Shown here piece after piece: positions 5,561 to 64,000 of a stretch of 64,000 nt of DNA (position 1 is its first letter; every line of letters starts with the position of its first letter). This DNA comes from an uncultured Fibrobacter sp. Its GTDB lineage: Bacteria > Fibrobacterota > Fibrobacteria > Fibrobacterales > Fibrobacteraceae. Where the stretch lies: assembly GCA_947306305.1 (NCBI GenBank), contig CAMZGI010000001.1:1973-65972 (forward strand). The letters run 5' to 3'. The notes below the pieces were generated by a model that was given only the letters and a program-made list of their open reading frames with translations, did not search any database and was not told the origin of the DNA. The position numbers and the translations under genes are program-made.

Positions 5561-6079
5561 ATGGTCTGTTTTTTGATACTGCTTGCGCTTGCCCTGATAG
5601 GCGGGTGCGGCGCGGATGTTCCGGTAGCGGAGCCTCTTGATTTTTCGGTCGGATTTCCGGCGCGTCCGGCTGCGGAAATGGAGCTTGGCGCATCGGTGCC
5701 GGTGCCGGAGGCTGAACCGGAGAAAGGAGAGTGCAGCGTGGCTTACGGTGTTTTACTGACCCCTTCGGCGGAAGATACGCTCGGCAGTATGATCTCGGCC
5801 GCCGATGTCGCGGTCGTCGAGTTTACCGCCGACTGGTGCGGCCCGTGCCAAGCTCTCCTGCCGGAACTTGAAAAACTCGCCGCCGAACACGAGGCGGTGG
5901 CGTTTTGGCAGGTCAATATCGACGCGAGGCCCGGTCTCTGCCAGGAGGCGGGCGGAATTGTGTCGCTTCCGACGGTCAAGGTCTATTCGGGGGTGAACGA
6001 GGTCGGGCAAGTGACGGGTAACTACCCTGTCCGGCTGCGGGGGCTGCTCCTTTCCGTTTTAAGGGAGAGAGGTGAGTAG
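5561..6079 (+). CDS. Thioredoxin-domain lipoprotein
   Basis: Signal peptide with lipobox-like LIGGC; FTADWCGPC active site; cis-Pro SLPT motif. Confidence 0.85.
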   Translation: MVCFLILLALALIGGCGADVPVAEPLDFSVGFPARPAAEMELGASVPVPEAEPEKGECSVAYGVLLTPSAEDTLGSMISAADVAVVEFTADWCGPCQALLPELEKLAAEHEAVAFWQVNIDARPGLCQEAGGIVSLPTVKVYSGVNEVGQVTGNYPVRLRGLLLSVLRERGE

Positions 6080-6606
6080 TGGGGGTCTTGACCGGGAGCG
6101 CGATTGCTTCGGCGGTGAGCCGGGGCGACATTGAGATTGACCCGTTCAATCGGCGTCAGCTTAATCCGAACAGCTACAACGTGAAGCTCGGACGGAAGCT
6201 GATCATCTATACGGAGAAGATACTGGACGTTAAGAATCCGAACGAATACCAGTATCTTGACATCCCGGAAGAGGGGATTGTCTTGGAGCCGGGACGCCTG
6301 TACCTGGGCGCGACGGTCGAAAGGACGTGGACGGATAAGTATGTTCCGATGATTGAGGGGCGGTCGAGTCTCGCACGGCTCGGCCTGTTCGTTCACGTCT
6401 CGGCGGGATTCGGAGACATCGGGTTCCGGGGGCATTGGACGCTGGAATTTTCCGCCGTCCATCCGATACGGATATACCGGAATACGGAGATTGCCCAGGT
6501 TTATTTCCATACGCCGGAAGGGAAGATTGACCGGCTCTACGCATCGAGGAAGTATCAGGACAATTACGGGGTGCAGCAGTCGCTTTCGTGGTTCGACTAT
6601 CTATGA
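6079..6606 (+). CDS. dcd: dCTP deaminase
   Basis: QLNPNSYN, EGRSSLARLGL, AGFGDIGFRGHWTLE, KYQ motifs. Confidence 0.93.
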   Translation: MGVLTGSAIASAVSRGDIEIDPFNRRQLNPNSYNVKLGRKLIIYTEKILDVKNPNEYQYLDIPEEGIVLEPGRLYLGATVERTWTDKYVPMIEGRSSLARLGLFVHVSAGFGDIGFRGHWTLEFSAVHPIRIYRNTEIAQVYFHTPEGKIDRLYASRKYQDNYGVQQSLSWFDYL

Positions 6607-26461: not shown

Positions 26462-28165
26462 ATGAAAATAACCGATTTTAAAATCTACCTCATTAACCTC
26501 GACCGCAGACCTGACCGATACGAGAGTTTTTTGAAAAGCGTCGAACCGCTCGGCCTGCCGGAAATTGAACGTGTCTCGGCGGTTGACGGAAAAGCCGTTG
26601 AACTGCCCAAAGACTGGCGGAACGGCTCACCGGGCGGATGGGGGTGCTTAAAGTCGCATTGGAATATCATCGAAAAAGCCTATGCCGAAAACATCTCGTA
26701 TATTATGATCTTTGAGGACGACGCGGAGCTTCTTGCCGACCGCGAGGCTCTCGATCAGACCCTTGCCGAACTGCCCGAAGATTGGGAACAATTCTATCTG
26801 GGATGTCAGCATTTCTACCAGTCAAAAAAACCGCCTGTCCGAATATCCGATCATCTTGTTATCCCATATAACGCTAACAGGACGCACGCGTACGCCTTAT
26901 CGCGCACGGGTATGGAGAAAGCTCTTGGGCTGTTAAACGATTATCCTAACTGGCAGAAGGGGTGGCATATTGATTGGGCTTATGGCTCCCTGCACGAAAG
27001 CGGAAAAATTAAAGCCTATGCGGCCTATCCGCCTCTGTTCGGTCAGGCTGCCGGATTAAGCGATATTAACGGCGCGGATAATAATAAACTCGCATGGAAG
27101 CCGGTTAAAATCCGCGACACCCGGACAGGAAGCGTTGCGGTTGTTTCAGATCGTGTAGGTTACGGCAAATTCGATATAAAGATTCCCGATATTTTTGACC
27201 GTGAAATTTACGACGGGTTCTTCGCTCACGCGCCTAGCGAGGTGAAGATCATCGTCAGCGAGCCGACAGAAGTTTTCGCCGCGCACGGGGTTAAGGAGAC
27301 TTCCTGGAAACCTTCTTTTGCGGTTATCGACGAGAAGAGTATCGGATGGGTTACAGCTAAGGGTGAAACGACTCAAACTTATGCTCTCGAACCGGGCGAG
27401 CATACCCTCGAATTTGTCACTAGCGACAACCGCGCCGCTCATACCTACTGGATTTTCCGGCCGCTTTCCCGACTCCCGTATCGTGAAGGTGCGTTATTTG
27501 AAATTTTCTCGAATGGAAAATGCAATAGAAAATGCCCGTGTTGTAATCAGCAAAAGACTATGGCGGATATGCCGGAGTATGAATATACTGCCCAAAACGC
27601 GGAGAGGCTTGTTTCCGTCTTGACCAGGAACATCAGCCTGATTTTCAGCGGCGGGGAACCGTCCCTGCTCGGCATCAAAGAGTGGACGCCGATTCTTGAC
27701 GTGTTCCGAAACTCCGGCAAAATCGACCGGATTGAGATTACAACCAGCAACGACAATGAAAACTGGATCGCGTTCGCGTTAAAGAATTTCGACAAGATTC
27801 ATCTTTCGCACCGCCCGTCAATGGGCTGGACTCTGAACGACCGTCCCGATTACCTGAAAGGTGTTGAAGTGTGGAATACCGACAATCATTGTATCTGGCC
27901 GGTGACGCGGTTCAGCGAATTTCCTAAATGCTGCTGCACCAACGTCGGAGTTCACGCCGCGATATTCGGAGACACCGTTGCTCCGTGCGTTCTCGCTCAC
28001 GAGCTTGCGATTAGAAAGCCCGATACCGTTCCCGCCCCAATCCCGCTTGAAGATTATTTCACCGGGAAGAGGTCGTTTACTCCCATCGGAACATACGAGG
28101 CTTGCCGGTGGTGCGTCAACAATGACCGTTACCGGGAGAAAACAAGGAAAGTTCCGACTGTGTAG
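26462..28165 (+). CDS. Glycosyltransferase family 25 fused to radical-SAM-like domain
   Basis: INLDRRPDR, SAVDG, GCLKSH, IFEDDA, HAYALS (GT25); CNRKCPCC, SGGEP and C-terminal Cys cluster (radical SAM/SPASM-like). Confidence 0.8.
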   Translation: MKITDFKIYLINLDRRPDRYESFLKSVEPLGLPEIERVSAVDGKAVELPKDWRNGSPGGWGCLKSHWNIIEKAYAENISYIMIFEDDAELLADREALDQTLAELPEDWEQFYLGCQHFYQSKKPPVRISDHLVIPYNANRTHAYALSRTGMEKALGLLNDYPNWQKGWHIDWAYGSLHESGKIKAYAAYPPLFGQAAGLSDINGADNNKLAWKPVKIRDTRTGSVAVVSDRVGYGKFDIKIPDIFDREIYDGFFAHAPSEVKIIVSEPTEVFAAHGVKETSWKPSFAVIDEKSIGWVTAKGETTQTYALEPGEHTLEFVTSDNRAAHTYWIFRPLSRLPYREGALFEIFSNGKCNRKCPCCNQQKTMADMPEYEYTAQNAERLVSVLTRNISLIFSGGEPSLLGIKEWTPILDVFRNSGKIDRIEITTSNDNENWIAFALKNFDKIHLSHRPSMGWTLNDRPDYLKGVEVWNTDNHCIWPVTRFSEFPKCCCTNVGVHAAIFGDTVAPCVLAHELAIRKPDTVPAPIPLEDYFTGKRSFTPIGTYEACRWCVNNDRYREKTRKVPTV

Positions 28166-44489: not shown

Positions 44490-45926
44490 CTACTTTGTGT
44501 TGATCCGTTCGTAAAGAATCAGGAAGGCTGCGGCGGCGCAAGCGGGGACTTGACCGTTTCCAAGTGCTTTAATGCGGTCCACCCTATCGGCCACCCCATC
44601 AGCCACTCGACCCAATCCGGGTTCAGCTTCCCACCAGGCCACCCCCGGCGCATCGCTGTCCGTTCCTCGGCTGTTATCAGACCCCCATCCCTGAGCTTGT
44701 CCAGCTTCTGTCTCGACCCCGTGCATCCGCCCATCCCTGATTTCGTGACTGTCGGATAAATACATCTCTCGCTCTCCTGGAACTCCTTTGCGATTTTTCT
44801 GACTTCCTCTCTGCCGGGGTCTCCCGCGTTCGGGAATATTTCCGCGACGCTCCGCAAGTCCTGGGTGACTCTCCGCAGGCGCGATTTCACGTCCCCGTGC
44901 CTGTAATCCTGGGCTGTCGGAGTCGGGAATGTCACCGACCTCTCAATCAGCCTTTGTCTCTCCTCGTTCATCAATCCTCCTCTTAAACATCCTTTCGGCG
45001 CACCATCGGGAAGTATCTTCACAAAGTTCCGCAGGGTGAGGGTGCTTCTGGTTTTTGCGTCATCTATGTTGGGCGCGTGATGATCTTCCTTTGTCGGCGT
45101 CGGAAAGATTACTTTCCTTCCTGTTCCAAAACCGTTACCACCGTGTCGAGTTTCGGCGAGCGGCGGTTCTGATCGCTCGGCCCGACCGAATGGCAGTCCC
45201 GAACCGTCGGCGTCGGAAACATCACATTCCTCTCTCTCTCTCTCTCTCGGTGTAGGCGCGTTTCACGGCTTCGGAGGCGTAGTTATGATTTAGCGCGTCA
45301 ACATTGACTTCGGGATTGCCACCCATCGCTATCCGCTCCTCCTCGGTGATCTCACCCCGCTGAACCATCCGCAGCAGGGTCATCTCGGAGTGCGCCCCTC
45401 CCCGCATCCCGTTCGTTTTCGGCGTCAGAAAGACGGTCTTTGCAGAGGCACCACCATCGCTCTCTTCCGTGCCAAGCTCCAACATCGGCCGCCGATAGAC
45501 AGCACCATTCCGCATCGTACCCCATTTCGGCAATCTCGCAGAGAACGGCATCAAGTCCTCTGGAAATAATGAAAGGGCTGTTTTCAAGGAAGATGTAGCG
45601 GGGTCGTATGTTGCGACATATTCGCGTGAGTTCAAAGAATAAACCAGACCGCGCACCCGTGATGCCCCCCCGCGTCCAGCACTTGATATATCCTGGCAAG
45701 GAAACCCTCCGCAAACACAGTCCACTTTTTCCTTAATTTCGCTTCCATTAAAACTCCTCACGTCCTCGAAAATGGGAAACTTCGGCAGCCATCCCTCATC
45801 CTGTCTCATCTGAAGAACCTTGCGGCAGAACGGGTCGATCTCGACCGCGCCGACCGGCGTATGACCGAGAATCATATCCGCGATAATCCCGCCCCCGGCT
45901 CCGGCGAATAAATGTAACGTGTTCAT
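44490..45926 (-). CDS. DNA cytosine-C5 methyltransferase distributed over five overlapping ORFs (frameshifted or split)
   Basis: Motif I LFAGAGG and IV GFPCQ (45926-), ENSP/HGRERW (45714-45352), LNPDWVEWLMGWP (45022-44519), ALGNGQVP (44765-44490), plus micro-ORF 45222-45109. Confidence 0.8.
45231..45248. repeat. (TC)9 dinucleotide tract inside the methylase locus
   Basis: Direct read. Confidence 0.9.
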
Positions 45927-58319: not shown

Positions 58320-59741
58320 TTAAAAGGGTACTTCCTCCAGTTCTTCCTCGTGGTAGGTCAAGATACTGACCTTTTCTCCGGTTTCACGGTCGAAAGAAGC
58401 TAGCTCGTAGTCGCCGCTTTCCCCTTCCAGTTTCATCAACGGACTAAACCGGCGCGGGGTATCTTCGGCGGTCTCGGTCTCTTCTGCGGTCTCTTGTGCG
58501 GTTTCGGGTTCAGCTTCGGGTTCATAGTCGGGGAAGAAGCTGCGCGTCCTGGGGGCGTCCTGGGTGGCTTCCTGCGGTTCCTGGGTATCAACGGGGAGCG
58601 CGTTCGCTGCGGTGGTTTCTGGGGCGGTCTCGGTGGCTTCCGTCTCCCCCTTCCGTCTGATTGCGTAAGCTTTCCAGCTGTCACGGCTGATTTTCTGACC
58701 GGTCTCGATTGCCGATAAAATCAGGTGTGCAAGAGTCTGTACGTCGTTGCCGAGCTTGTAGATTTTATCGTAGTCACCGCCGCTCCAGCTTTCTAAATAG
58801 ATAAAGTTCATATCTTTGGTGTCGATCCCTAAGGCGTTTAAAACGACGAAAGCTGTTGAGTCTGCGCGGATTTCTTTTATCTGCCTTTCGTCCTGGTTCG
58901 GGTTCTGCTTCCAGTCTGCGATGCTGTGCGCGATTTCGTGAACAAGCGTCGCAAGCTTGTCAAGGTCTGCGGCGTTGGCGTTGATCTTGATTCCCTCGAT
59001 CGGTCTGGTGTAAGCTTCAGGGTTTACGATGTTCGCCGTGTTGGTCTGCCAATAGTACCCCTTGCTGTCGTCCGTCCAGACTGTAAGCTCTTCAACGATA
59101 ACAGGCGCGACAGCTTCCAGTTTGGTGACAAGACTGCGGTACCGCTCTCCGCTCTCCGGTAAGCTCCAGGGATCGGGGGGGAGCGGTTCGCCTTCGGTCT
59201 GTTCATAGCTGAAGATAGGGACAAGCTTGTACCGGTTGATCCAGTCGGGGCGGATGTAAACTTCCTTTTTGGTCTCTTCCGTTTCTTCTCCGGTGGCGGG
59301 ATCGGTGGTTTTCACTTTCGTTGATTTGGTGCCGATCCATAAGGGCGCGTAAACATAATAAGCTTTGCTGCCTTTTTTAACAGTCCTGTGAAATTCGTCC
59401 GTCCATCGTTTGAAAGAATTGAAGTAGCTGACCGTCTCGGCGCGTTCTTTCGCCTGTTCGTAAAGCAGGATCGTATTTTTGAAGCTGTAGTTGTGGAATT
59501 TGGAAAGAAAGAGGAGGTGCTTCTTCAGTCCTTCCTTGCCTTTCAGTTCTTCCAGTCCTTTCTTCAGCTTCTCCTGCGCTGCTTTGATCTTTTCGTCGCG
59601 TTCGGCGGTCGCCTCTTCCGCCGTTTTCAGCTTCCAGTTCTGGCGCGGTTTGGCGGTCGTGGCGGTCGTACTGCGCGTTCGGCGCGTGGTCTTGTTGCTC
59701 TTTGATTCCAGAGCTTTGCGGTACTGTCTGTAGGTTGTCAT
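58320..59741 (-). CDS. ArdC-like ssDNA-binding + zincin metallopeptidase protein (anti-restriction candidate)
   Basis: FHNYSFKNTILL, FKRW...VKKGSKA..VYAP, HEIAH, EIRADSTAFVV, YLESW; acidic tail. Confidence 0.82.
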   Translation of the reverse strand: MTTYRQYRKALESKSNKTTRRTRSTTATTAKPRQNWKLKTAEEATAERDEKIKAAQEKLKKGLEELKGKEGLKKHLLFLSKFHNYSFKNTILLYEQAKERAETVSYFNSFKRWTDEFHRTVKKGSKAYYVYAPLWIGTKSTKVKTTDPATGEETEETKKEVYIRPDWINRYKLVPIFSYEQTEGEPLPPDPWSLPESGERYRSLVTKLEAVAPVIVEELTVWTDDSKGYYWQTNTANIVNPEAYTRPIEGIKINANAADLDKLATLVHEIAHSIADWKQNPNQDERQIKEIRADSTAFVVLNALGIDTKDMNFIYLESWSGGDYDKIYKLGNDVQTLAHLILSAIETGQKISRDSWKAYAIRRKGETEATETAPETTAANALPVDTQEPQEATQDAPRTRSFFPDYEPEAEPETAQETAEETETAEDTPRRFSPLMKLEGESGDYELASFDRETGEKVSILTYHEEELEEVPF

Positions 59742-59784
59742 TGTTTGGTACTCCTTCGGTGGTTGTGGTTGTTGGCGGTGGTTG

Positions 59785-60042
59785 TTACTTGGTGACGGTC
59801 TCGGCACAAGCTTTGCGGAGGGCGCGTTTCATTGTCGGATGGTAGCTGACATTCCATCGGGATAAACTGTTAACGATCTCAACGGCCCAGCTGTACGCCT
59901 CTTCCGCCGTCTGGAAATTCATTCCGATAATGTCAAAGCTGAAGCTGTCGGTTCGGCTTTTAATGCTGATCCGGGCAACATTCTCGGCGGGGTCGAAACC
60001 ATCTTTATAGATTTCGTACTCGGTTCTGGTTTTCTCGGTCAT
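59785..60042 (-). CDS. Hypothetical protein
   Basis: AGGAG RBS, downstream of promoter. Confidence 0.6.
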   Translation of the reverse strand: MTEKTRTEYEIYKDGFDPAENVARISIKSRTDSFSFDIIGMNFQTAEEAYSWAVEIVNSLSRWNVSYHPTMKRALRKACAETVTK

Positions 60043-60100
60043 TGTTTGGTACTCCTGTTTTTTGTGTTGCTGTTCTTCTTTCCCTCTTGGGATATTTGTT

Positions 60101-60128
60101 ATTATAGTTATGTTTTCGGCTTGGTCAA
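60101..60128 (-). promoter_or_regulatory. Early sigma70-like promoter
   Basis: TTGACC-16-TATAAT. Confidence 0.65.
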
Positions 60129-60279
60129 TACCTATCCTTAATATTTTTTAAGATTTTATTTATAACAAGTAAGTTAAAAAGCGGTTTCGCTCTTGTTTTA
60201 TAGGGGTTTCGCGTGAAAAAAATTTTTTAAAATTTTTCTGCGTGGAGTGGTTTTCTGGTCGTTTTTGGGTGGTTTCGTG

Positions 60280-60462
60280 GGTTCCGGCGGGGCTATTTTT
60301 TTAGTTTGGCGCGGTTCTAACGTGCGGGCGCGATATGTTCCGGCGGTGGTTCCGGCGGGGCTGATTTTTTAATTTTCGGCGGTTCTAATAGGCGCGTGTG
60401 ATATGATGCTGCGGGGGTGATTTTTTTAATTTCGTTTTGTTCTAACAGGCGCGTACGATAGG
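60280..60462. repeat. Three degenerate ~60-bp tandem repeats (fourth copy at 56029-56072)
   Basis: GCGGGG..ATTTTTT(T)A...GTTCTAACAGGCGCGTACGAT consensus. Confidence 0.75.
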
Positions 60463-60895
60463 GTGGGATCGGCGTTTTTTCGGGCGTGCTGCGCTTCGCG
60501 TGTTTGGTTTTTTCGGCGGTTTTTTCGGGTGCTTTTTTCGGTCTCCCCTCTCCCCCTCTACCCTCTCTTTTTTCGGTGGCTTGTCGCGTTCCTTCCCCCC
60601 TCTACCCTCTCCCCTTGTTGCGCCTCTTGTCGCGCCTCTTGCCTCTCTCCGTTCCTTCCCCTGTTCCTACTTGCCACTAGTGGCAAGAGAGAACAGAGAA
60701 CAGGAGAGAGGGAAGGAAGGAACAGAGAACAGAGAACAGGAGAGAGGGGGCTATATTGCCCCCTAGAATGAGAACAGAGAACAGGGGGTATATTATCACC
60801 TATCGGCGGTTAAAACGCATAGGGGGCAATATTGGCAAGATTAGAGGGTATCGGATCGAAACAGGAGAACAGGAGAACAGAGAACAGGAGAACAC

Positions 60896-60923
60896 AAAAA
60901 AAGCCCCCTCTATGAGAGGGGGC
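60896..60923 (-). terminator. Rho-independent terminator
   Basis: GCCCCCTC/GAGGGGGC stem followed by T7 on - strand. Confidence 0.8.
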
Positions 60924-60962
60924 AAGAGTAACGAGTAGGAAGGGGGAGAGGCGTTCTATTCC

Positions 60963-62117
60963 CTATTGCTGATTAAAGTAAGCAATCGCGTTTTTAAGGG
61001 CTTCCCTTCCCCTCTCCCCTTTAGCTCCATATCGGAAAACTCCCCCTAAATCAGCGCGGAAGCTCCAGTTATGGGAAGTCAAAAAGGCGTGATATTTTTC
61101 GGGGGTATCGGCAAATATAAGGTATTTTTTATCGCTGATGTCGTGATAAACCTTTACCCCCTTGCCACTATTGCTATATAGTTCTATTGCCCCCCTAGTA
61201 TCTTGCCGAAAAGACTGTTTCGGAGTCTTTCGTTTCCGCGCCTTTTCTGCCTCTCTTGCCTCTTTATCAATAGCTTTCTGGAGCGCGGTTTTAGGGGCTT
61301 TTATTGCCTTGTCGCGTGCCTCTTTCCGCGCTTGCCTCTCTCTGATTAGAGTCTCAAGCTCAGAGTCTTTAACCGCCGAAAAATTCCAGTAAAACGGGGG
61401 TGTATAATCGTCGGAGTACTTGCCCCTCAGCTTCTCTAACTGAATAGAGGTATCTTTATATCGGAGGGGGGAAGGTATAGCAGGGATCGTTAGTCCAGGT
61501 ACTAACCTTGCCGATAATGTTCTATTCTCTCCCACTAACAGGTTAGTGGGATTGTGTGTTAGTTCTAGTTGGTCGAATAATTCCAGATTGTAGCAATACT
61601 GGATTTCAGTACCAACAAGCTCAACGTCGAAACAGGATCGATCGTAAGGCAGGAGAGAAGCTTTCTCTTCAGCTTCCCTCTGATACCGCGCCTCTATCCC
61701 CCTGTATATCGTTTCGTACTCCGTTTGACTAATTGCCCCCTCTTCAAGTTTATCGGCAAGCTCGGTTATATCTTTTTGATACTCTTCCGAAAAGCAATAG
61801 GAGAGATTTGATGCGCGCTCTTTCCGCTCTCTTCCTAATCGGAAATCCTCTCTAATCCTCTTGTAAACCGTATCAAGAGAGCCTAAACAGATCGGTACGG
61901 TCAGCTTGGAACAGTCAAGATCGACAAGCTCGTACTCTACCTTGCCTCTGAGGCGTGCCTTGTCTCTTGTCTCCCCGTGTTTGCAATACGGATCGGATAT
62001 AGCAACAAGCTGATAATTAGGGGTGATAAAGAGGTACACCCCGTGTACCTTTTCGCCCCTTTTAACCGCCGATTTTAGCGTACTCAGCTTCTTGAAAAAT
62101 GATTGCATACTTTCCAT
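60963..62117 (-). CDS. Hypothetical 384-aa protein in motif-depleted terminal block
   Basis: Long ORF bounded by promoter and terminator; no recognised domain. Confidence 0.75.
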   Translation of the reverse strand: MESMQSFFKKLSTLKSAVKRGEKVHGVYLFITPNYQLVAISDPYCKHGETRDKARLRGKVEYELVDLDCSKLTVPICLGSLDTVYKRIREDFRLGRERKERASNLSYCFSEEYQKDITELADKLEEGAISQTEYETIYRGIEARYQREAEEKASLLPYDRSCFDVELVGTEIQYCYNLELFDQLELTHNPTNLLVGENRTLSARLVPGLTIPAIPSPLRYKDTSIQLEKLRGKYSDDYTPPFYWNFSAVKDSELETLIRERQARKEARDKAIKAPKTALQKAIDKEAREAEKARKRKTPKQSFRQDTRGAIELYSNSGKGVKVYHDISDKKYLIFADTPEKYHAFLTSHNWSFRADLGGVFRYGAKGERGREALKNAIAYFNQQ

Positions 62118-62139
62118 TATCGGTACCCTCTCTTTCTAA

Positions 62140-62421
62140 TTAGCAATACTTGTTAGCGAAAAGCTCTAGAGCTTCTCTAAGCTCTTCTTTATCGTAAGTT
62201 TTACCCTCTCCGATAAATCGGGAAGCAAGCTGAGCCTCTGCCCCTTCTATCCTGTTTTGAATATCGGGGGGAGTCAAAAAGCCTAGCTTCTTGTCTTGCT
62301 TAAGCTGTTCAATAGTGGCAAGGGGGCAATTTTCCGTATAGCGCGTTTCGGAGTCAAACCATTCCAGATAAATCGTACCCTTTACTTCCGCAACATCAAA
62401 ACCATAAACATCAAACATCAT
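62140..62421 (-). CDS. Hypothetical acidic protein
   Basis: AGGAG RBS, first gene after promoter. Confidence 0.7.
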   Translation of the reverse strand: MMFDVYGFDVAEVKGTIYLEWFDSETRYTENCPLATIEQLKQDKKLGFLTPPDIQNRIEGAEAQLASRFIGEGKTYDKEELREALELFANKYC

Positions 62422-62477
62422 TTTTAAAACTCCTATGGTTAGAATTTAATCCCCCTCTCCCCTATGCGCGTACCTAG

Positions 62478-62506
62478 AGTATATACTATTCTTTCGGTAT
62501 TGTAAA
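62478..62506 (-). promoter_or_regulatory. Sigma70-like promoter
   Basis: TTTACA-17-TATACT. Confidence 0.6.
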
Positions 62507-63552
62507 GAGGTTTTCTTAATAAAATCTAAAAAATGTTAAAAAACTTTTTAGGGGGGTATATTGCCCCCTTGCCTCTCTCTACCCTCTCCCCCTGTTCCTA
62601 GTCCAGTCTCGGGAAGGAGAACAGAGAACAGGGATCGGATCGGAGAGGGGGCAAGAGGGGAGTACCCCCTTGCCTCTGTTCCTTGCCTCTGTTCCTTCCC
62701 CCTGTTTCGGTCATCGGTCATCGGTCATCGGTATCGGGAAGGAGAACAGGAGAGAATATCGGGGGCAATAGTGGCAAGAGCGAAAAACAGGCTAAAAACA
62801 GCCCATCCCGTACGCTTAAGCTGAAATAGTACTTAAGCTATATATTAAAAATAATATATTAGGGTCTCCTGTTTCCGCAGCCTCGCGTACGCGTGCGCGT
62901 ACTATATAATGAGTAAAAACGCGAAATCGGCTTGCCCCTGGGCTATTTTACCTATTTTCCGCAAGCGTTTGAGCCTTTAAAACAAGGGGTTTCGAGGGTC
63001 TTATGATATACACCAAGCGCGGAAACGCCTTGTTTTCAGCAGTCTGAGAAACCTATCGGCGCGTAGGGTAAAAAAGTTTAGGCGGGGCAAAACTACCCAG
63101 AGTCTAGGGCGGGTCGCTTTTTTGCGCTTTCCGTGTTGCAAGGAACGGTCGAAACGGCGGTCGAAAAGCGGTCAGAGCCTTGAAAACAAGGCACTTGCGC
63201 GATGTTTAGGCTTTCCTAAACATTTTAGGTTCTCCGCGTGCAAAAATTCGGCGGGGGGCGGGCGAAAAGGTCACAAAGGGCGAAAAATTTTTGTTTGCTA
63301 GGATCGGGCGGGGTTTTCGGGCCTCCTGGGGCGGTCGTGACGACGGAAAACGGTGCCGGAACGCGCCGGGATGGGCCGTTTTTACCCCTCTGAAACCTGG
63401 GAATTTCCGGGGCAATCAGGGGCATTATCGGATATTTTCGAGGTATTCCTTTATATATATGGCGAAAAACGGAGTAAAAACGTGGGGCGTGAATATGGGT
63501 AGTTTACGGCGGTTCGGTAATGGAGATCGTGGTGGTGAGGGCGCGTTCCGGG

Positions 63553-63925
63553 TTATTGCTTTATTGCTGCATAATGCTTCAGAGGCGGTGATGCAATATT
63601 CGCTTTCGGGAGGGCAGAAGTTTATTGCTGCAGACCGGCGTGAGGCATTATTGAGGCATTATCGGGGCATTATCGCGTGAAGTTAGGTAACGTAGTGGAA
63701 TTGGGGAAATATTTTTAGGCGCAAAAGACGGTTCTGACCTGCGAAAGTTTATTGCTACAGGGTAATGTGAGGCAATAATGATGCAATATGAGGCAATAAA
63801 GCCTTTTTTGAGAGGGCAAAAGTTTATTGCTACAGGGCAATAAACTCTGTCTGTAGCAATAAAAACGGGGGTTTGAGTCTTTAAAATAAGGGGTTTGAGA
63901 GTTTATTGCTTTATTGTTATTGCAT
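63553..63925. repeat. Iteron-like direct and inverted (AAGT)TTATTGCT(ACAG) repeats
   Basis: Copies at 63553, 63561, 63618, 63745, 63820, 63900; inverted CTGTAGCAATAAA at 63851. Confidence 0.8.
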
Positions 63926-64000
63926 CACTATAGATATAATTTTTTTAAAATCTCTCTCTATATGGGTGTATTTTGCAATATTTACCTTAAGGGGCTGTAG

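Follow-up and report, generated by a model that had tools for sequence, protein, structure and literature searches.

A 3-kb block free of restriction words, kept so by selection, at the head of the leftward arm of a probably temperate gut phage

The DNA analysed here is a stretch of 64,000 nucleotides (nt), called the window throughout, which covers positions 1973-65972 of the 66,279-bp contig C1 in a bin of 388 metagenome contigs assigned to an uncultured Fibrobacter sp. Judging by its genes, C1 is a tailed phage. Close to the right end of the window lies a block of about 3 kb, which contains a two-gene operon and is devoid of the words CCGG and GGCC and, except for its edges, of GCNGC. Neither the composition of the block nor the protein sequence it encodes accounts for this depletion, and comparison with relatives from other metagenomes indicates that it is maintained by selection. 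We interpret the block as an exchangeable immediate-early accessory module of the phage, with products likely to act on host defence or on host takeover, and would give this interpretation a probability of about 0.4.

Depletion of restriction words and its maintenance

CCGG occurs 413 times in the window and not once in 60353-63355. The resulting gap of 3004 nt is the longest for this word, the next one being 1427 nt, and its Bonferroni-corrected Poisson probability is 1.6e-6. GGCC is missing from 59885-63319, and GCNGC, of which the window has 336 copies, from 60489-62876, which is likewise its longest gap; the limits for GCWGC are identical. An earlier note on this DNA, made by eye, had described the block as free of CCGG and GGCC from about 60356 to 63318 and of GCWGC from about 60493 to 62876, and both spans held when the motif positions were computed across the window. 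Compared with the rest of the genome, the block has 0 vs 425 copies of CCGG, 0 vs 157 of GGCC and 3 vs 348 of GCNGC, the three copies of the last being at the edges only.

Expected numbers were computed for 60356-63318 (GC content 47.3%) from base composition, from dinucleotides and from a maximal-order Markov model. For CCGG these gave 9.3, 14.4 and 10.3 copies, respectively, and for GGCC 9.3, 15.1 and 9.3, with zero observed in both cases. Local GC content, named by the earlier note as a competing explanation, does not account for the depletion: two words of the same base content are abundant in the same block (CGCG 23, GCGC 19), in excess if anything, and together with the Markov expectations they rule out local composition as the cause. 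When the 136 distinct 4-mers were ranked by their deviation from the block's own Markov expectation, CCGG was 7th and GGCC 9th. Both words are absent from each segment of the block, that is, from the left non-coding (607 nt), the coding (1459 nt) and the right non-coding part (897 nt).

Within the larger of the two genes, which encodes a protein of 384 amino acids (aa), recoding with the codons of the phage yielded on average 5.4 CCGG (P=0.0015 for zero), 4.4 GGCC (P=0.006) and 3.0 GCNGC sites (P=0.04). Resampling with the gene's own codons yielded 2.5 CCGG (P=0.04 for zero), 2.1 GGCC and 1.0 GCNGC. Codon choice and amino acid choice are thus both shifted in this gene. Its translation has Met at residues 1 and 4 only and no Ala-Ala dipeptide, as had been noticed before.

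Four homologous contigs from other metagenomes were read (L001 to L004). The first three are 79-82% identical to the block at the DNA level and contain no CCGG, GGCC, GCNGC or CATG at all. When the 251 substitutions that separate the window from L001 were placed at random, 7.2 sites were created on average and none in 0.1% of the trials (P=0.001), and the control words CGCG and GCGC together stayed at 20-21 sites. The locus of L004, which encodes a 46%-identical homologue of the 384-aa protein in DNA of 55% GC, carries 10 CCGG, 4 GGCC, 18 GCNGC and 3 CATG. Since the homologue is encoded there with many sites, the possibility that the protein sequence forces the depletion was ruled out, and since random substitutions would have created 7.2 sites, the depletion is not a frozen accident either. 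To judge from these alignments, it is maintained by selection in this lineage, and in several lineages. Both genes of the operon are themselves under purifying selection, with a ratio of nonsynonymous to synonymous substitution rates (dN/dS) of 0.14-0.33 (0.17 for the 384-aa protein, 0.14-0.33 for its 93-aa partner).

Shorter matches came from runs X1, X3 and X5, which are Logan contigs from goat-gut and other gut metagenomes, none of them a full-length relative. The X1 relative has an insertion at 63348 with two CCGG and one GGCC; because this site-bearing insertion falls just outside the island, as we also call the block, the right border is kept in relatives. The X1 and X5 contigs match to the right of 62511 and are replaced to the left of it, and X1 has a second breakpoint at 63109. 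From these breakpoints the operon appears to behave as a swappable unit. In the X3 contig the 384-aa gene and a neighbouring gene resembling ArdC remain adjacent.

The backbone of the phage, too, avoids restriction words, and its footprint is unusually broad: at least 27 short words are almost absent. Among these are (observed/expected) CATG 2/117, GGWCC 2/103, CYCGRG 0/64, GRGCYC 0/48, RGCGCY 2/57, GDGCHC 2/77, CGCGCG 0/48, GAAGAC 3/40, TCCGGA 1/33, CGATCG 3/38 and AACGTT 0/24. The 27 motifs occur 5 times in the island vs 24.7 expected from its own composition, and 26 of the 27 are avoided in common. In L001 there is 1 copy vs 14 expected, in L004 there are 55 vs 57, and the other contigs of the bin show no avoidance. 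Because it shares the avoidance of the backbone, the island is not foreign to the restriction environment of this phage. Its origin as DNA of an unrelated source was ruled out on the same 26 of 27 motifs and on its lack of likeness to the rest of the metagenome-assembled genome (MAG; r = 0.26). In overall word usage the island nevertheless deviates more than any other part of the genome: its 4-mer correlation with the rest (r = 0.33-0.35) is the lowest of all 3-kb windows (median 0.86). Its GC content is 47%, that of the phage 53%, and many non-palindromic words are used differently: GACG is found twice vs 41 times expected, AGAG and CCCC are in excess. A sibling phage, L007 (IMGVR_UViG_3300049644_000068), which has a 72%-identical portal protein and a GC content of 46.6%, avoids another set of words (GCWGC 6, GATC 13 and GGWCC 1 in 16.8 kb), so avoidance sets vary between sibling phages.

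A second block poor in particular words, at 24.25-26.35 kb, was considered and set aside. It is a low-GC (44%) module 3' of the tape-measure gene with one CGCG and no GCGC, and its own composition accounts for most of this.

The operon, its flanks and its two orphan proteins

To judge from its sequence elements, the block is a single operon of two genes running from a sigma-70 promoter to a terminator. The self-contained unit proposed in the earlier note was recovered with both its control elements. The features are the following (strand in brackets):

60353-63355 (no strand): CCGG-free span; compositional island with a core at ~60500-63300 and a sharp right border (~63.3 kb)
62478-62506 (minus): sigma-70-type promoter, TTTACA-17-TATACT, found as a motif
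62140-62421 (minus): gene of the acidic 93-aa orphan protein
60963-62117 (minus): gene of the basic 384-aa orphan protein
60893-60923 (minus): predicted intrinsic terminator, a 9-bp G+C-rich stem (60923-60903) followed by a T-run
60500-60892 (no strand): untranslated purine/pyrimidine repeat array 3' of the terminator, with GAGAACAG and CCCTCTCC words; long hairpin, z = -3.6
62545-62789 (no strand): untranslated repeat/hairpin array 5' of the promoter, with the same set of words as the downstream array; z = -4.6 (62420-62900)
62790-62865 (no strand): ~75 nt without a single difference between the window, L001 and L002, in which the flanks do differ
62866-63300 (no strand): conserved untranslated region free of CCGG and GGCC, 87% identical to L001
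60280-60472 (no strand): tandem array of three 57-68 nt repeats on the left margin of the depleted zone; CCGG and GCNGC reappear within the repeats

Read along the minus strand, the order is untranslated region (63300-62510), promoter, 93-aa gene, 384-aa gene, terminator, second hairpin array, tandem repeats and a second promoter. The operon promoter is conserved in L002 and L003, less so in L001, where the -10 region is different; a TTGACT-17-TATACT promoter upstream of the L004 homologue resembles it loosely. The untranslated flanks are at least as well kept as the genes (87% identity to L001 vs 85% for the coding part). GAGAACAG occurs 12 times on the plus strand of the window, each time in one of the two flank arrays. 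The region 60043-60962, with its tandem repeats and long hairpin (z = -3.6), has no homology to T5. In the invariant stretch at 62790-62865 there are two hairpins, GCTTAAG...CTTAAGC and a small one resembling a terminator; the stretch could encode a small RNA or bind a protein. A scan against Rfam returned for the flank arrays only chance rows of microRNA precursors, caused by the long hairpins, and a conserved 26-mer of the untranslated region had no match in viral or metagenome contigs. By eye, none of the repeats or motifs of the repressor region of the phage was seen at the operon promoter; an operator shared by the two was therefore rejected.

Both proteins proved to be orphans, as the earlier note had called them. 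Searches of Pfam, PHROGs and PADLOC gave no match to either at E <= 0.1, save chance-level rows below the cut-offs. HMMER found two relatives of the 384-aa protein among 1.84 billion representatives; an index of 5.8 billion proteins returned one of these two, P0002, and, for the 93-aa protein, two further relatives in addition to the window's own copy. The only homologues of the 384-aa protein are P0002 (70% identity) and P0006 (46%), and none was found in IMG/VR, the JGI metagenome contigs, GTDB genomes, INPHARED phages or PLSDB plasmids. The L004 homologue is preceded by an unrelated 109-aa gene, thus the pairing of the 93-aa and 384-aa proteins is not obligatory.

Structure prediction, proposed in the earlier note, gave very different results for the two. 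The 93-aa protein is acidic (isoelectric point, pI, 4.5), and its model, consisting of three strands and three helices, is confident, with a predicted local distance difference test score (pLDDT) of 94. No convincing match to this fold was found in the PDB (best Z 4.9), BFVD or the ESM Atlas (template modelling scores, TM-scores, < 0.5), and Foldseek gave E >= 0.01. The 384-aa protein is basic (pI 8.9), with a Lys/Arg-rich stretch at residues 250-330. Its model is poor (pLDDT 49) and its structural matches are all below threshold; an Atlas feature search scored <= 0.77, and a profile search against PDB sequences gave E >= 0.16. The C-terminal 75 residues are better modelled (pLDDT 75-85) and have a likeness to the DNA-binding C-terminal domain of T4 MotA (6k4y_M, Z 6.3, root-mean-square deviation 2.9 over 73 residues; 5jlt_A, Z 5.7), which is at noise level, Z < 8 being noise for this aligner, and is tied with unrelated folds.

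Surroundings of the block in the phage genome

The block had been described earlier as terminal. This did not hold: the ends of C1 overlap by exactly 55 nt, so that the contig is a circular assembly path of 66,224 bp. The block owes its apparently terminal position to the place where the assembler cut the circle and to the window ending there.

The GC content of C1 is 52.8% vs 46-50% in the other large contigs of the bin. The products encoded on the plus strand of C1 are a large terminase (GpA-type), a portal of the lambda family, a capsid protein and a 1780-aa protein of tape-measure size; on the minus strand there are a primase-helicase, a sliding-clamp-like protein, ThyX, a match to tyrosine integrases and a PDDEXK exonuclease. 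A gene for a CI-like repressor (HTH_3) is opposed to the minus-strand genes. By this gene content C1 is a tailed phage, and because it encodes both an integrase and a CI-like repressor, the phage is probably temperate. The plus-strand arm begins at C1:148, and the minus-strand arm begins with the two-gene operon, which heads a 12.6-kb leftward array made up of small genes of unknown kind and the ArdC-like gene. The two arms are separated by about 2 kb of non-coding DNA (window 62422-64000, C1 65973-66224 and C1 1-147). No tRNA genes were found.

The non-coding DNA between the arms has two further features. A cluster of TTATTGC iterons lies at window 63550-63920, with 7 direct and 4 inverted copies and three copies of GGCATTAT; apart from two stray copies the cluster is found nowhere else in the window. 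Its role could be that of a packaging site or of an origin. Directly 5' of the first plus-strand gene, the plus strand is very G-rich over about 300 nt (C1 66050-66224 / 1-110; L006 150-380, L005 1-110).

The transcription unit that follows the operon on the minus strand lies outside the depleted block:

60101-60128 (minus): second, strong promoter motif TTGACC-16-TATAAT at the head of the next unit (an 85-aa gene and the ArdC-like gene)
58320-59807 (minus): ArdC-like gene, 495 aa, with an ArdcN domain and an HExxH metallopeptidase-like region

The ArdcN domain (PF08401) scores 36.3 bits against a Pfam cut-off of 22.6, the HExxH sequence is HEIAH, and there is a weak match to Peptidase_M78. 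Homologues of the protein carry PF08401 and PF06114; none was found in IMG/VR. By its ArdcN domain and HExxH region the 495-aa protein classifies as ArdC-like, in agreement with the assignment in the earlier note.

The rest of the bin does not avoid the words avoided by the phage (observed/expected for CATG 0.97); it avoids GTCGAC, CTCGAG, GTATAC, CATATG and GATC. A related portal was found neither in GTDB contigs nor in 150 genomes of the family of the MAG. Because of these two observations the metagenome bin may not be the host of the phage.

Possible roles of the block

We take as established that the block is depleted, that selection maintains this, that the operon has the anatomy described, that both genes are under purifying selection and that the block heads the leftward arm beside the ArdC-like gene. 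If the block is an exchangeable early module, host RNA polymerase would start at the sigma-70 promoter (62506-62478, minus strand) and transcribe the genes of the acidic 93-aa and the basic 384-aa protein as far as the terminator (60923-60903). Ongoing purifying selection keeps CCGG, GGCC and GCNGC out of the operon and its conserved untranslated flanks (~60.35-63.32 kb), which also avoid most of the ~27 words avoided phage-wide. As this 3-kb segment should be open to few type II enzymes, its transcription could go ahead in a new host even with the ~930 CCGG, GGCC and GCNGC sites in the rest of the genome exposed or not yet protected. The two products would most likely act on host defence or host takeover. 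What we infer in this scheme is that expression is early, why the words were purged and what the two proteins do.

The earlier note had gone further: pointing to the site-poor first-injected DNA of T7 and T5, it saw in the block the first-entering end, with two candidate anti-restriction factors acting ahead of the ArdC-like gene. Of this account the purge, which selection maintains, the operon, the orphan proteins and the ArdC-like neighbour are borne out. A position at a contig end does not stand in view of the circular assembly, and the phage is unlike T5 or T7 in having a lambda-type terminase and portal together with an integrase and a repressor.

Several points weigh against an early defence-related module. 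Neither protein matches the known anti-restriction or anti-defence families (Ocr, ArdA, ArdB/KlcA, ArdC and others as contained in Pfam and PHROGs) at E <= 0.1. The purged words are targets of type II enzymes, but most known phage inhibitors act on type I systems. It must be noted that freedom from sites in one operon is of no help to a genome with hundreds of cut sites elsewhere, unless entry is staged or the remainder has other protection. CTCAG is present 6 times in the 3-kb island and 13 times in the other 61 kb, where 68 copies would be expected; the avoidance set of the island thus overlaps that of the backbone without being identical with it, which suggests that its history was in part its own, that of an exchangeable module, and argues against purely local selection. 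The operon's own promoter, its own terminator and its odd composition fit a moron expressed from the prophage equally well. Among the public runs listed as carrying the sequence there was no RNA run.

It is conceivable, though doubtful, that the block is such a moron, or a cassette serving lysogeny, which came in by exchange with a sibling phage, is transcribed independently and is expressed in the prophage for the lysogen, be it for exclusion of or defence against other phages or as a toxin-antitoxin-like pair (small acidic, large basic). The absence of sites would then record the restriction systems of the donor lineage and not a local need. Morons of lambdoid prophages, reportedly treated by Juhala et al. 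in 2000, are said to be independent promoter-gene-terminator inserts of deviant composition. The operon resembles them in its sigma-70 promoter and intrinsic terminator, its deviant GC content (47% vs 53%) and 4-mer usage, the strongest outlier of the genome, its orphan genes and its mosaic borders, with an integrase and a repressor encoded in the same phage and no repressor-region motif at the island promoter. The deviating non-palindromic words (GACG, AGAG, CCCC), the tolerance of CTCAG, the breakpoints of relatives at 62511 and 63109, the unrelated small gene upstream of the L004 homologue and the different avoidance set of L007, by which sibling phages differ, are also what one would expect. 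The selection is less well explained. It has continued against new sites through ~18% divergence in several lineages, it is confined to the island, immediately outside of which relatives tolerate sites, and 26 of the 27 motifs avoided by the backbone are common to the island; no donor genome lacking the sites was seen. We know of no moron with a selection-maintained absence of specific restriction words. Unlike morons, the operon carries about 1.5 kb of conserved structured flanks and stands at the head of the early arm rather than among late genes.

Unlikely, to our minds, is staged entry as in T5. It would place a genome end near the border at ~63.3 kb; the island would be injected first and its two proteins made as pre-early products, the repeat/hairpin region at 60.05-60.9 kb would pause entry, and the rest would follow once protected. 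In T5 restriction sites are absent from the first-step-transfer DNA, matter only in that segment and are tolerated elsewhere, and at its inner border large, conserved, repeat- and palindrome-rich untranslated regions stand beside poorly conserved open reading frames (bioRxiv 10.1101/866236). The block is similar in being a short segment with early genes predicted to be driven by a host promoter and in lacking sites that are frequent elsewhere (CCGG 0 vs 425, GGCC 0 vs 157, GCNGC 3 vs 348), as described for T5 (bioRxiv 10.1101/866236). Its untranslated flanks, which are kept at least as well as the genes (87% vs 85%) and are rich in repeats and hairpins, may correspond to such a border region. 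The sharp compositional border at ~63.3 kb, with the TTATTGC iterons 0.2-0.6 kb beyond it on the side of the late genes, would fit as well: the iterons would be in a position like that of lambda cosB if cosN were at the border. The differences are considerable. T5 is virulent, has terminal repeats of ~10 kb and the known pre-early genes A1, A2 and dmp; the contig studied here closes into a circle in which no terminal repeat is seen, its GpA-type terminase and its portal are lambda-type, it encodes an integrase and a repressor, and no A1-, A2- or dmp-like protein is recognisable, there being no PHROG family at E <= 0.1. The tolerance of CTCAG in the island, a word avoided by the backbone, does not fit either. 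To our knowledge staged injection is documented only in T5-like phages and transcription-driven entry only in T7-like phages.

More specifically, a T5-like logic might operate in a gut phage of the lambda type, the island entering first, repeats at its inner border pausing entry and the orphan pair counteracting type II restriction of the ~930 sites; this combination we consider improbable.

The least probable of the readings, very unlikely in our opinion, is a regulatory module in which the 384-aa protein would be a DNA-binding early regulator acting on the flank repeats (GAGAACAG, GGGGGCAAT..TGGCAAG) and dense site arrays would cause the odd composition: the Lys/Arg-rich stretch, the faint resemblance of the modelled C-terminus to the T4 MotA domain (Z 6.3 and 5.7), the confinement of 12 of 12 plus-strand GAGAACAG copies to the flanks and words of the same kind around the L004 homologue are in line with it, but Z values below 8 are aligner noise, the overall model is poor (pLDDT 49), and arrays of binding sites do not account for a coding sequence without CCGG and GGCC.

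It is instructive to compare the operon with two other systems in which leading DNA carries anti-defence genes. In T7, gene 0.3 is the first gene that host RNA polymerase transcribes on the leading DNA; its product is the anti-restriction protein Ocr, which acts on type I and BREX systems and not on type II sites. Like Ocr, the 93-aa protein is small and acidic, but its sequence matches neither Ocr nor other DNA mimics, its fold has no convincing match among them, and the type of phage is different. The leading regions of conjugative plasmids contain anti-defence islands with ArdA, ArdC, PsiB and SSB. An ArdC-like gene among small early genes near a predicted transcription start, with hairpin-forming DNA nearby, is reminiscent of these; unlike plasmid leading regions, the block belongs to a tailed-phage genome with terminase, portal, capsid and tape measure, for which entry as double-stranded DNA is expected.

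T5 and T7 are the textbook cases of restriction-site avoidance limited to a single region, a curiosity that has rarely been looked for elsewhere. Here it can be demonstrated from sequence alone in an uncultured gut phage of another type, with ongoing selection across relatives. If the purge is the mark of DNA that has to function while the genome is still unprotected, the first-acting genes of unknown phages could be found cheaply by scanning for such islands, and genes found in this way would be prime candidates for new anti-defence proteins. If, instead, it records the travels of a mobile module, mosaic phage modules would keep a restriction history of their own, which matters for host prediction based on word usage. 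In the databases searched the two proteins have 2 and 3 relatives, respectively, and the 93-aa protein, with a confidently predicted fold without known match, is a well-defined experimental target.

Some other genes of the window are of interest with respect to DNA modification. At 45433-45926 (minus strand) there are matches to C5 cytosine methyltransferases in two different frames, which cover motif positions 1-163/324 only; the gene may be frameshifted or broken. A dCTP-deaminase-like gene is located at 6079-6606, and a GT25 glycosyltransferase fused to a radical-SAM-like domain at 26462-28165. It is possible that the products of these two genes take part in the modification of DNA or of the virion, which would bear on the protection of the other sites.

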